Positions 1,184-60,310 of a stretch of 64,000 nucleotides of DNA are shown in pieces. Both the position numbers and the translations under genes were made by a program. Each line of letters starts with the position of its first letter. Within the stretch, counting starts at the first letter, position 1. The notes beneath the pieces were generated by a model. That model was not told the origin of the DNA and ran no database searches. It worked only from the letters and a program-made list of their open reading frames with translations. This DNA comes from Octopus vulgaris (taxonomy: Eukaryota): contig OX597823.1 in assembly GCA_951406725.2 (NCBI GenBank), positions 35,712,001-35,776,000 on the forward strand. Direction: 5' to 3'.

Positions 1184-2297
1184 ATTAAATTAGAGATAAA
1201 ACCACTATTAGGCAAATCAAACAGTGAAAAACATAAACCAAAGCATAGAAATAAAATTAATTAATATAATATACAAAGAATATATAAAATATAAAATTCA
1301 AAATTTAAATTATTTAAATTTAAAGTTAAAATTTTTTTTTTAATTTTTAATTATTAATTTATACTTATAAATTTTCATATATAAATATATATACATATAT
1401 ATTTTTTTATTATTTTTATTTTTTATTTTTTATTTTTTATATATATTTATTTATTTATTTATTTTTTAAAAAAATATAAAAAATAAAAATAAAATTAAAA
1501 ATATAAAATTAAAAATGAAAATAATAAATATATATATATATATATCCTTAAATCCTTAAAAATGTTTTAGCCCGAAGGCCGCGGCCATGCTGGGGTACCA
1601 CCGCTGAAATATATATATATCTTTATATATAAAAGTGAGGTTGTGTGCTGTCTGTCTCCTACGATTTAGATTCCTAACTACTCCCACATTCTGCGGTGCA
1701 GTTTAACCAAAACCGGGTATCTTATAGTCGTGATTCATATCGAGCCCTTCTGGGTATTAGCGCGCGTCTACGATGAGTCTACGATTTTAAAAAAAAATTA
1801 CCATCAATTTTTCCCATTTTTTAATGCATTTTTGGCATATATAAGGGAAGTAACTCTCTAAAAATATATTATTAAATCTCAGAACGTAAAAAGCTTCAGT
1901 AACACCCCCTTTGTGGTTAGCCATATTGAGATGGCTATTATACTTTACATCTCTAAAAATGCTTATATAGTTATTTCCCTTACAAACCCGAGCAACGCTG
2001 GGCGATACTGGTAGTATATATATAAATTTATAAGCATAAATTAATAATTTAATTTTTTTTTTAAATTTTAACTTGAAATTTAAATAATTTAAATTTTGAA
2101 TTTTATATTTTATATATTTTTTGTATATTATATTAATTAATTTTATTTCTATATTTTGGTTTATGTTTTTCACTGTTTGATTTGCCTAATAGTGGTTTTA
2201 TCTCTAATTTAATATATATATTTATACTGTAAAATTAGATTTAATCCTAAATCTAATTTTTCCCTGTAAGTTTGGATTTACGCCCTAATATTATTAT
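1184..2297. repeat. Inverted repeat pair (arms ~1184-1372 and ~2024-2213), PLE pLTR-like ends in (TA)n
   Basis: attaaattagagataaaaccactattaggcaaatcaaacagtgaaaaacataaacc... recurs as its reverse complement ending at 2213; the same terminal motif occurs at ~58123. Confidence 0.85.
1620..2014 (+). mobile_element. Non-autonomous Helitron, family A copy 1
   Basis: A|TC 5' end (tctttatatataaaa), subterminal hairpin cccgagcaacgctggg, 3' GTAG|T (CTAG variant); homologous copies at 13883 and 34506. Confidence 0.8.
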
Positions 2298-2439
2298 ATA
2301 TATATACCGTCACACACGCGCACGCACATACACACATTACCATTTTGCATCTAGCTACCTTAATTATTTTTCAGAGAGAATACTTACTCCTTCGAAAAAC
2401 GGACATAGACATCAAGGTTATGATTTTAACTCGAAATAT

Positions 2440-2620
2440 ACTTTATAGTTAATAATTCCATTTATTAAACAAGTAAATCATAATTTTTCCAAATCGTTCA
2501 ATATTGCAATTGAAAAATATTTTCGAATCAATTTTTTTAATAAACACAAGATTCTCATGACTTATTATGTCAGCAAAAATATTGCGCAAATTATAGCAAC
2601 ACATAATGTAAAAATGATAT
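2440..2620 (+). pseudogene. Degenerate Penelope-like RT C-terminal/linker relic
   Basis: Manual translation IIPFIKQVNHNFSKSFNIAIEKYF and FNKHKILMTYYVSKNIAQIIATHNVKM resembles the PLE PPF..N....F...I.KHF / FNRNT.K.SYS...N...II..HNKK region. Confidence 0.5.
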
Positions 2621-2944
2621 CAAATTTCAAAAAAGTATCTATTATAATCAGAGTGGTATAATAAATATTAAGCATAATAATGTCAAACGGAATTTTTTAA
2701 AAAATTCAAATAGCAGAGAACGCTAAGAATTTAAAAGTTGCTGAAAGGCAAACAACCTAATTTAACATTCCATTGGATGAAAAATATAAAATAAAACATT
2801 CCATCGAATAAAAAATCCAACACGAAATAGAACAAAGATAAGGTTATCTAAAAGATTAAATAGAAATTAAGAACTTGGTTTAAATGAATTTGATTTTATT
2901 ATGAATGATAAAATTAAAAAGTAAGTATGAGAGAAATATAAAAA

Positions 2945-3235
2945 CTAGCAGTATAGCCCGGCGCTGCCCGGGATTAGGTTAGGATTATTAAGCTAATCAA
3001 GCGCTTTGTTTCAAACCAAACTAAGTAACACCGATGTCAAATTTGAGCGAAATCTGTTGAAATTGATAAACGCTTGGCTGAAAATAGATTGCAGACAATT
3101 TAATTGGGAAATCCATAAGGAATCGTTTTATCGATTTTTCCACTCATCGATTGCTTTTTTTTTTGGGGGGGGGGAGCGGGATTTAAAGCATTCAAAGATC
3201 CTGTGAGGCCTAAGTAACGCCGTTGACAAAGGAAA
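2945..3235 (-). mobile_element. Helitron 3' end fragment
   Basis: Minus strand reads cccgggcagcgccgggctatactgCTAG|T (hairpin plus CTAG); 5' boundary not identified. Confidence 0.6.
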
Positions 3236-3526
3236 AGGGTCTTATGATCCTAATCCACAAACGCGTCCATAATTAATCGAAGACTGATTTCATTATTTCT
3301 CTTCTTTTTCGGCATGTGTGAGTTACAAATATTGTTGTCTGTGGAGACATATTTTTGTAGAAAAAGAAATAGTAGTCTTTTGGCTGCTATTTCTAAAATT
3401 TTCGGTATGTGGTCAAGCAACTTGTTGCTAAACCCATATTGTTATAATTATATATATACATATATATATATATATATATATATATATATATATACACACA
3501 CACACAACATACGAATACTTACATAT

Positions 3527-4110
3527 TCTCTCCTGGTGCTGTATAAATATCTGATGTGGTTTTAGAGTCAAGTTTTGACTGCTATCTCTAGCATGATGGT
3601 ATCTTTAGATACCTTTAATTATAATTTTAATAATAATTATTACGTATGAGGTTTTTATTCCCATGCTGGCCACTTGATATGATCGGTATTTGAAAAAACG
3701 ATCTTATCCTTATTTATATAAATTTATATATTTACTTTGTCATTATATTCACTGCGGTGGTATTTTGACCATTCAGCACGTGGAGTTAAGACAGGCAATT
3801 ATACTGGTCGTGTGCATACGTGCATATATATGTGTGTATGTGTGCGTATATGTAAGTATTCGTATGTTGTATGTATACATATATTTGTAATTATGTACTA
3901 TCTTGTGTATATTCTAACGATGAATCCAAGCATTTCTTATGCAGAGTTAAAAATCTAGATCTGGAATTATCCAATAATTTTTTCCTAGTTTATTTTGTCT
4001 CTTTCTCTTCTCTCCTGGTGCTGTATGAATATTTGATGTGGTTTTGAAGTCAAGTTTTGACTGCTATCTCTAACATGATGGTATCTTTTAGATATCCTTA
4101 ATTATAATTA
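3527..4110 (+). repeat. Partial tandem repeat, period ~482 bp, containing a decayed hammerhead-like motif at ~3911-3967
   Basis: tcctggtgctgtat..gatgtggtttt..gtcaagttttgactgctatctcta occurs at 3531 and 4013; attcta-acgatga...aaaa-tctaga-tc-tggaat lies between. Confidence 0.7.
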
Positions 4111-58252: not shown

Positions 58253-58352
58253 AGCTACGTACATTTCATGGATACAATTAAATTCGAATTACAATTAAGT
58301 TTAAATTCAATTGAAATAAAATCGATTTAAAATTATAGTCAATCTTCAGGTT
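58253..58352 (-). ncRNA. Type-I hammerhead-like motif in a pLTR-like end (58123-58450)
   Basis: aac-CTGAAGA-ttga...tccat-GAAA-tgtac-GTA-gct; core intact, helices decayed. Confidence 0.5.
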
Positions 58353-58667
58353 AATGATAACTGTTAAATAAATAAGCAAATAGAGTTAAACAAAATTTAT
58401 CTAAAAAATAAATAAAATAAGTTTTCTTATAGAAAAACTCCATTAACTAAATTTGAAACTTAAAACATTAGGATTATTTCCTACAACACATTTATTATGT
58501 TAAATATTTAATTTTTAAGATAAAAAAATAGATAGAAATATGTATTTAGCTGTGAAGATATAATTTGGCTTAAAAAATATAATAAACTATCGAATATCTT
58601 TAACTCAGTTATACTCCAATATTTAATTACCAAATTATTTTACAAAATAATCACTATAGTAATCATT

Positions 58668-59605
58668 ATAGTAATCAGAGTTTCAAATGCCGGACCGAAG
58701 AGCTACGATGCGTTCTCATCTACTATTAATATCAATAGACGCTATGGAAAGCCGTTGAATAAAAGAGAAGTTACTCTGAAAGGTAGAAAAAAATATAAAC
58801 GATTAAAAAAATAAACGCAACCATATTCTCACAATACATAGACATAAAGTGTTGGTTGTTTTCTTCCTGAGTTTTCCTTCCACGAGGTTTTTACCACTAT
58901 CTTAAAGGCTGTCATTACTTTCGAGACAGTGCTTCTTGATACACTAAACATTTTGGCTGTTTTCGGTACGCTAGCGCCTGCCATACGAGCACCAACAGTT
59001 TTACCTCTTTGAAAGTCCGATGGATCTAACATTAAAATAAATTTTAATTACATTTTTCTGATGATATCTGAATACAAACAGTAATTTTAGCAACACTAAT
59101 AATAAATCAAAAACATAAAAATTAACAAGCTTTTGACGGTTTTATAGATATTTCAAAATTATGATGCTATGATGCTAGGTGTTTCCATTATTTTGTCTAA
59201 CTCCTGTATATATAATAATAAAAAAATGTTAAGACAGGAACATAGTAAAATTGCGGTTTGCATCCGTTTGTGTGTGTAACTGCATGTACATATATATGTC
59301 TGTGTGAGTGTGTACGTATGTAGACATTATGAACGCAGGAGGTTTTATGTCAATGTGAGGATATGGTTGCGTGTATTTTTTATCGTTTATCTTTCTTTTT
59401 CTACCCACTAGAGTAACTTCCCTTTTATTCAACTGTTTTTCATAGTGTCTATTGCCATTAATAGCCGACAAGTATGCATCGTAACTCTTCGGTCCGACAT
59501 TTGAAACACTGAGTACTATAATAACAACTTACTGATATATAAATAATCCTCTATTTACCTATATCGAGGTCTCATTCTTTTGTTATCACTTTTTATTTTT
59601 GCTCT
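58668..59605. repeat. Diverged inverted pLTR-like pair (58668-58835 and 59350-59520) with decayed hammerheads
   Basis: Arms are reverse complements; implied consensus atag-ctgatgag...gaaactctgagta-ctat; right tail cctctatttac.ta..tcgaggtctc matches the 33255-33320 end. Confidence 0.75.
58850..59208 (-). mobile_element. Tc1-like transposon 5' fragment (TIR and transposase HTH)
   Basis: TA|caggagttagacaaaataatggaaacacc; SDFQRGKTVGARMAGASVPKTAKMFSVSRSTVSKVMTAF...NSGRK. Confidence 0.85.
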
Positions 59606-59609
59606 ATGT

Positions 59610-59826
59610 ATATATATGTGTGTGTGTGTTTGTGTATGTGTTTATCCCCCACCATTGCTTGGCAACCGATGTTGGTGTGTTTACGTCCCCGTGACTAAGC
59701 GGTTCGGTAAAAGAAACCGACAGAATAAGTACTAGGCTTATAAAGAATAAGTCCTGGGGTCGATTTGTTCGACTAAACTCGATGCTCCAGTATGACCGCA
59801 GTCAAATGACTGACACGTGTAAAAGA
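59610..59826 (+). mobile_element. SINE family 1, 3' half
   Basis: Homology to other copies. Confidence 0.85.
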
Positions 59827-59887
59827 ATATTATATATATATATATATATATATATATATATATATATATATATATACATATATATAT

Positions 59888-60310
59888 ATATCAAACTAAA
59901 GTTATTGAACAAACAAATGCAAGGTCTTCCGCATAGGAATTCATAATTCGAACATTTAATCATATAATATACATATAAACATCCCGCAAGATGGAACATA
60001 ATTCATCTGTACAAGCATACAAGCATATAATAATAATAAACTCTAAACTGTGATGAAAAAATTTTTTTTCTCGCACCTTATTATTATTATATGCTTGTAT
60101 AGATGAATTATGTTCCATCTTGCGGGATGTTTATATGTATATTCTATGATTAAATGTTCGAATTATGAAATGCTATAAGGATGACCTTGCATTTGTTTGT
60201 TCAATAACTTTAGTTTGATATTTTTGTCTCTTTCAATAGAGCACTTGTATAGCAGTCCTATTAATCTTTTTGTTCCTGACAAGAAACAATCACTGTATTA
60301 TTGATATTGA
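59888..60310. repeat. Fold-back element in (TA)n, arms 59888-60039 and 60078-60221
   Basis: atatcaaactaaagttattgaacaaacaaatgcaaggtc ... gaccttgcatttgtttgttcaataactttagtttgatat. Confidence 0.9.

Follow-up and report, generated by a model that had tools for sequence, protein, structure and literature searches.

The 64,000-nucleotide stretch of Octopus vulgaris DNA analysed here (the window; G000:C10:35,712,001-35,776,000, part of a 2.8-Gb genome) is rich in microsatellites and holds eight inverted repeat pairs. In our judgement these are probably insertions of Penelope-like elements (PLEs), in which two 5'-truncated copies were set head to head in a (TA)n tract by cutting of both target strands and by priming twice on a single RNA. 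What is observed is the geometry and the rules of pairing, and it is from them that we infer the twin priming. The architecture itself is already on record (PMC8557442, PMC3846280, PMC4209133; papers are cited throughout for the parts of their text that were available) and is not the novelty that a preliminary description of the window had taken it to be. What is new is that the pairing rule has been counted and that an intact, young element is available.

All eight pairs of that description, with their unequal arms, were recovered near their original coordinates by BLAST of the window against itself and by inspection of the sequence; the pair that begins at 16147 ends at about 21853 rather than 21692. 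Genome searches with each arm place them in eight dispersed repeat families (A, F1-F5, F7 and F8; Table 1), with 797-3,334 candidates per arm family at first look, figures that are not copy numbers. The loci had been called largely unrelated, but not all of the families are: the loci at 33255 (A) and 58668 (F7) share a tail (83% over 54 nt by self-BLAST). Once the 3' end of each family had been fixed from genomic copies, the left arm was minus and the right arm plus in 8/8 pairs, as proposed; for 58668-59605 (F7), ends and polarity were taken only from the genome match table and the similarity of its tail to that of family A. With the 16147 locus extended, seven of the eight are bounded by (TA)n on both sides, the exception being the left arm at 58668.

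This polarity extends well beyond the window. We assembled 181 loci in eight sets (A, F1-F5, F8 and Y, the last a very young coding family described below), mostly with 1.5 kb of flank and with the window's own loci and duplicates dropped; 6 of the 20 F1 and F8 loci were chosen for an already listed partner, and the family Y loci were picked by endonuclease score only. Inverted neighbours lay head to head in 84 cases and tail to tail in 4 (p 1.6e-20), while for 98 of the 181 loci the DNA retrieved contained no inverted partner. The four tail-to-tail cases comprise two inside compound units, one older neighbour and one low-complexity match. Controls resembling short interspersed nuclear elements (SINEs) gave 9 head-to-head and 6 tail-to-tail arrangements in 352 matches. 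The outer 3' ends adjoined TA repeats in 199 of 266 instances (41/44 in family Y, 22/34 in family A), against 7.7% of random 26-mers drawn from 140 kb of unselected DNA; a control with the 5' piece of a SINE, at TA in 62/82, was set aside because its end adjoins a TA-rich stretch inside that repeat. Family Y loci were head to head in 19/25, and TA also stood at the 5' junction of 3 of 6 solo Y copies, so that the tract must have been there before the element. The TA tracts that F4 has in common with F3 and F5 in the window would be expected if an insertion divides its tract and so leaves two new targets. In a search for an empty site at the young locus L083, none of the listed contig pieces and joints from 4 public runs spanned the insertion. 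Together with the protein motifs discussed below, the non-random polarity and the TA enrichment support the diverse, (TA)n-targeting Penelope-like system that had been proposed.

The pairs follow a rule in their ends. Every family has two fixed 3' ends, short and long, which lie about 33-163 nt apart and so delimit a tail. Automated scoring returned 56 long/short pairs, 6 short/short and 3 long/long, with 17 unscored (56/65, p 1e-9). The tail was absent from the query for A, F2, F5 and Y and included for F1, F3, F4 and F8, so that in the latter four the test is whether the partner is short. All seven window loci that could be scored by reading are long/short, and unpaired young copies had 3 short and 4 long ends.

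Family Y, whose paired arms show only 25 differences over 16,537 overlapping bases, allows the templates to be compared. A subfamily marker at unit position 1842 agreed between the arms in 13/14 pairs, one allele being shared in 7 of them and the other in 6; the single exception is a tandem array of unlike units whose private markers match across the arms, and 3 private variants were found on both arms. Among the 16 long/short Y pairs, the short-end arm reaches further 5' in 6 (L061, L069, L073, L086, L077 and the C3 array), the long-end arm in 8, and the two are about equal in 2. In the first six, neither arm can therefore have been copied from the other, barring later deletion. Central junctions are variable, with an overlap of at most 3 nt in 11/17, more in 4 and short templated fillers in 2 (L064 and L086). 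The template reads AT at 12/12 end sites with read-on sequence, and ATA at 10; these sites were hand-placed in AT-rich sequence, which makes the identity suggestive and counts against leaning on it. Finally, two loci, 33255-36118 in the window and L077 in family Y, are insertions of a second generation, both arms of each copying a template that already held an inversion junction.

We also noted 5' breakpoints recurring at unit positions 1048, 594, 1905-1907 and 247-248 in L069, L080, L075, L077, L084 and L067, possibly RT (reverse transcriptase) stop sites or shared derived templates. Beside the inversion centre of L065, near 7961-8100 of the joined C1 array, some 20 small deletions crowd into 130 nt, a cluster that may reflect error-prone synthesis or sequencing error.

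To account for the pairs, we suspect that an RT-endonuclease, probably dimeric, would cut both strands of a (TA)n tract, whereupon the two 3'-OH ends would each pair with AU(A) on a transcript, monomeric or tandem, the first at its short site and the second at its long one. The two cDNAs would stop independently and be linked by end-joining, each supplying the second strand for the other, and failure to extend the second side would leave a solo copy. Reading through an inverted copy could also yield a new template, as may have happened at 33255-36118 and L077. Head-to-head pairs would arise, then, because the enzyme likely cuts both strands and primes twice on one RNA; priming from both strands, already suggested in the preliminary description, thus gains support as the likeliest mechanism. 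Our confidence falls a little short of even in the stronger proposition that PLE integration in general is obligately coupled twin priming, the short site being primed by one strand and the long site by the other on one RNA. If true, it would account at once for why the tail is one-sided, why the partner lies head to head and how the second strand is made. The same enzyme type likely moves the non-coding families as well. The self-complementarity of the target, which had been offered as the cause, looks dispensable: inverted pLTRs (pseudo-long terminal repeats) occur with 9-10-bp target duplications in Adineta (PMC3846280), and a Poseidon protein cuts and extends both strands at ATT (PMC11167929).

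Several observations weigh against twin priming on one RNA. The 6 short/short and 3 long/long pairs break the rule, although the six short/short all belong to the most decayed family and four of them show a tail by eye. Non-nested arms could arise by later asymmetric deletion at the palindrome centre, and alleles of the same source do not tell a single RNA from a pair transcribed from one master. No sequence link between F1-F5 and any PLE open reading frame (ORF) was demonstrated. The literature searched yielded no biochemistry on any Hydra-clade protein, and the Poseidon protein in vitro chose its start site without a strand difference and without homology to the cut DNA (PMC11167929).

Some of the contrary evidence favours a fold-back or self-priming event, in which the cDNA snaps back so that the second arm is copied from the first, endonuclease resolution removes the tail from one side and central deletions follow; this is close to the self-priming idea of PMC3846280 and the resolution idea of PMC8557442. 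Such an origin fits the presence of the same alleles, including the 3 private variants, in both arms, as well as the short templated fillers and the near-symmetric palindromic centres of four young pairs (L075, L082, L085 and L080), one of which, L085, is long/long with a mirrored flank and probably a true fold-back. As a general explanation we consider it unlikely, since 6/16 young long/short pairs are non-nested although their arms hardly differ, and equal unit numbers would be predicted at the C3 array, where 1.6 and 4.4 were found.

Two RNA molecules of one active master, held together by protein or by a hammerhead dimer and each primed by one strand, would, provided that each cell has a single active master, account for concordant alleles as well as for arms that are not nested. 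Palindromic stem III sequences in F2, F3 and F5 agree with this, as does L170:95-1830, where an F4 arm lies head to head with an unrelated Hydra-type RT-endonuclease relic with TA at both outer ends; arms from different families need two RNAs or two events, and L170 is possibly a two-template insertion, a further point against a single RNA. We nonetheless regard two RNAs as quite improbable for the pairs at large, for one long plus one short end is not explained by this alone, and F1 and F8 share the geometry without a hammerhead.

That the arms are terminal inverted repeats (TIRs) of DNA transposons or foldback elements, or long-read palindrome artefacts, is scarcely credible: inverted termini with TA at both ends do resemble miniature inverted-repeat transposable elements (MITEs), and small deletions do cluster near the centre of the C1 array, but in place of fixed-length identical TIRs there are two different fixed ends, arms of varying length, variable centres, solo copies and head-to-tail tandems, the window arms differ by 3-26% within unique flanks, and RT-endonuclease ORFs lie in cis in A, Y and, at one locus, F8.

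The link to PLEs comes from the coding families. Four GIY-YIG relics, the number given in the preliminary description, were matched, two of them weakly; one is strong, and only this one lies in a listed pair (Table 1). That one, at 34915-35560, is 62% identical to the intact family Y protein, with one Cys of its linker changed, and as an endonuclease query it gave 150 scored matches among 11,222 first-look candidates, a figure that is not a copy number. Among these matches is family Y, a 2,588-bp unit with an intact, single 708-aa ORF, at L065:1985-4108 on the minus strand, that runs from RT to a GIY-YIG endonuclease at the C-terminus and has 388 relatives. The Pfam GIY-YIG match to the Y protein (P0003) is weak, below the cut-off at E 0.021 for a 661-aa part, with none for the whole. 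The protein carries RWK at 37, DKT at 114 and CxCx5C at 557, is without CCHH, and has one CxxC (660) and one CxH (691) near its C-terminus. With its size of under 3 kb, its putative hammerhead and its (TA)n target, it therefore fits the Hydra clade as given by Craig et al. 2021 (PMC8557442), where nearly every family of the clade has (TA)n as its insertion target. We accordingly place families Y and A among Hydra-clade PLEs, an assignment made from motifs. Neptune, Nematis and Naiad were ruled out, as their CX2-5CxxC linker and CCHH motif (and, for Naiad, an N-terminal endonuclease) are absent. A search with a 99-aa relic against longer proteins scored 0/14 candidates. A weak RT-thumb relic of this protein group also stands directly after the F1 locus (2326-2625, plus strand, E ~4e-5).

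An autonomous PLE ORF could be tied to A and Y. Among the other families the signs of such a link are partial: F7 shares the tail of A, in F8 the long end continues into the start (N-terminus) of a Hydra-type ORF in 1/10 loci, and none could be shown for F1-F5. F2, F3 and F4 consist of short non-coding units in tandem, no ORF was seen in F1 or F5, and ORF scans of the sequence next to F2-F5 turned up none in cis that could be linked with these families. All of F1-F5, F7 and F8 nevertheless have PLE-type ends, with two 3' ends, tandems and an inverted 5'-truncated partner, and F1-F5 are likely connected to a PLE enzyme by this architecture only. Since one genome supplies a young, near-identical family with an intact ORF, many events, and non-coding partners that either have or lack a hammerhead, twin priming can here be tested directly. 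In annotation, MITE would be the wrong label for such repeats.

The hammerhead had been given a central place, and here the evidence is mixed. A relaxed minimal-hammerhead descriptor has five matches in the window, four of them within listed arms (two each in F3 and F5), and it matches the sense strand of the majority sequence of A, F2, F3, F4, F5 and Y; yet the motif is decayed in the window copies at 5300, 15316, 33255 and 58668, and none was found at 1184-2297 (F1) or 59888-60310 (F8), nor in the one relative of each that was scanned. An Rfam scan of the window returned no hammerhead among 115 matches at E<=1, only microRNA matches driven by microsatellites. Genomic copies passed the descriptor on the sense strand in 18/30 (A), 0/30 (F2), 13/30 (F3), 18/30 (F4) and 20/30 (F5), and in 0/30 on the other strand. 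In 140 kb of unselected DNA there were 2 matches, against 2.0 in shuffles, so that the descriptor alone shows no genome-wide enrichment. Judged by sequence, the motifs are real putative ribozymes that have mostly decayed, and two loci are without any.

Where it survives, the motif has peculiarities. A, Y, F3, F4 and F5 carry one extra base between stem II and GAAA, the Y core reads CCGAAGA, and loop II of F5 runs to about 90 nt. Single-strand folds of 8 putative hammerhead copies gave z from -0.16 to -2.5. In families Y and A the putative ribozyme lies in the pLTR on the ORF strand only, and in genomic copies of A that hold both, the hammerhead end is downstream of the ORF and sense to it. The hammerhead may be a passenger or act in RNA processing; it looks dispensable for the geometry, because F1 and F8 have that geometry without it. 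Nor do the products seem to be ribozyme cassettes, as had been suggested, given the two families without a motif, the decay of most window copies and the many loci that lack an inverted partner. The short arm of L065 starts 5 nt past a predicted cleavage site, a single case that was not used.

Compared with known systems, the octopus elements are largely of a familiar kind. PLE insertions typically comprise partial tandems, have a 5'-truncated, inverted copy attached at the 5' end, and carry on one of their ends a tail of 30-40 bp (PMC8557442), and the head-to-head form has been called the most frequent arrangement, with self-priming proposed (PMC3846280); head-to-head pairs, a tail on one arm and palindromic junctions all recur here, whereas the tails are of about 33-163 nt. 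How PLEs build tandem and inverted insertions and tails is named as an open question in PMC8557442. In contrast to the few families outside cnidarians in that account of the Hydra clade, we found the thousands of first-look candidates given above (again not a copy number), one family that is very young, a number of non-coding partners and some families in which no hammerhead was detected. Poseidon of Anolis (PAc; Frangieh et al. 2024, PMC11167929) cleaves both strands and extends them, with two internal start sites that delimit a tail, and its hammerhead is dispensable for insertion in vitro. The octopus pairs resemble it in their two start sites and in their use of both strands, which here is deduced from sequence, but unlike PAc, which shows neither target homology nor strand preference, their ends match the target in AT(A) and show one-to-one coupling.

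Dual hammerheads on opposite strands and a U3-A8 core have been described before (PMC4209133). Like the hammerheads of metazoan PLEs and animal non-LTR retrozymes, those found here have a Type-I minimal core, a palindromic stem III and, in F2, the U3-A8 core (PMC4209133), and they share opposite-strand dual motifs 100-700 bp apart and short tandem non-coding units (PMC4209133; bioRxiv 10.64898/2026.07.22.740005); the extra base of five families sets them apart from the hammerheads of those accounts. For the one-long-one-short rule, template concordance or non-nesting, the parts of the PLE literature searched gave no such counts, and they likewise gave no tested Hydra protein or twin-priming account, although the supplements of PMC8557442 may list related families. 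PMC13282606 lists recent Penelope families without clade or structure in the text available, and the corresponding parts of PMC9977147, PMC3681739 and PMC6765202 add no insertion mechanism.

Table 1. Inverted pairs, hammerhead motifs and endonuclease relics in the window (RT, reverse transcriptase; E, expectation value; a dot marks features of both strands).
Feature	Position	Strand	Remarks
F1 pair, non-coding	1186..2294	.	left minus arm, short end 1186; right plus arm from ~2025, long end ~2294
Different repeat	1615-2024		inserted between the two F1 arms
F2 pair, non-coding	5300..5713	.	tandem period ~270-320; left arm long end, right arm short end
F2 hammerhead	in 5300..5713		decayed, minimal; U3-A8 core
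RT-thumb and endonuclease relic, related protein group	10160..10825	+	weak, E ~2e-4 to 3e-4; outside listed pairs
F3 pair, non-coding	14290..15275	.	period ~475; left minus arm partial tandem, short site 14290; right plus arm 14935-15275, long end
F3 hammerhead motifs	14498-14438 and 14967-15027	- and +	relaxed descriptor
F4 pair, non-coding	15316..16138	.	period ~476; left minus arm partial tandem, long end 15316; right plus arm 15989-16138, short end
F4 hammerhead	near 15597	-	decayed
F5 pair, no ORF recognised	16147..21853	.	left minus arm interrupted, short end 16147, body including 19900-21148
F5 right plus arm	21273-21853	+	long end; TA tract 21854-21900 beyond
F5 hammerhead motifs	16457-16342 and 21356-21471	- and +	long loop II; relaxed descriptor
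GIY-YIG relic, related protein group	26670..26974	-	E 1e-10; outside listed pairs
Family A (Hydra clade by motifs) compound pair	33255..36118	.	left arm 33255-34076, long end; right arm, short end 36118
Family A hammerheads	33412 and 36027	- and +	decayed
Broken RT-thumb / CxCx5C linker / GIY-YIG endonuclease relic	34915..35560	-	E 5e-75; the only relic inside a listed pair
Endonuclease relic	57097-57294	+	weak, E ~3e-4
F7 pair	58668..59605	.	right arm long end; left arm cut shortly after decayed hammerhead, no TA boundary
F8 pair	59892..60310	.	hammerhead not found; short end on the left arm, long end on the right

The left arm of the F7 locus was cut by an AT-rich repeat, and the right end of that locus has only a decayed TA/TG tract. 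The AT-rich repeat (58121-58668, minus strand), which abuts the arm, has an F1-like 3' end. One repeat family of about 400 bp, its copies 86-94% alike, lies in or beside three of the loci, at 1615-2024, 13895-14293 and 34501-34819.

Elsewhere in the window, 38982-39458 is a near-perfect palindrome of 477 bp (99%), coding-like and continuing the ORF at 39465-39821 (minus strand), with reading frames that point inward, no TA boundary and no Pfam match. We take it to resemble the N-terminus of an R4/Dong-type long interspersed nuclear element; it may be a recent inversion or an assembly artefact, and its match to CTGATGA...GAAA is probably coincidental. Further palindromes that are not bounded by (TA)n lie at 22414-22588, 22759-22898, 23190-23810 and 57196-57361, the last overlapping the endonuclease relic at 57097-57294.

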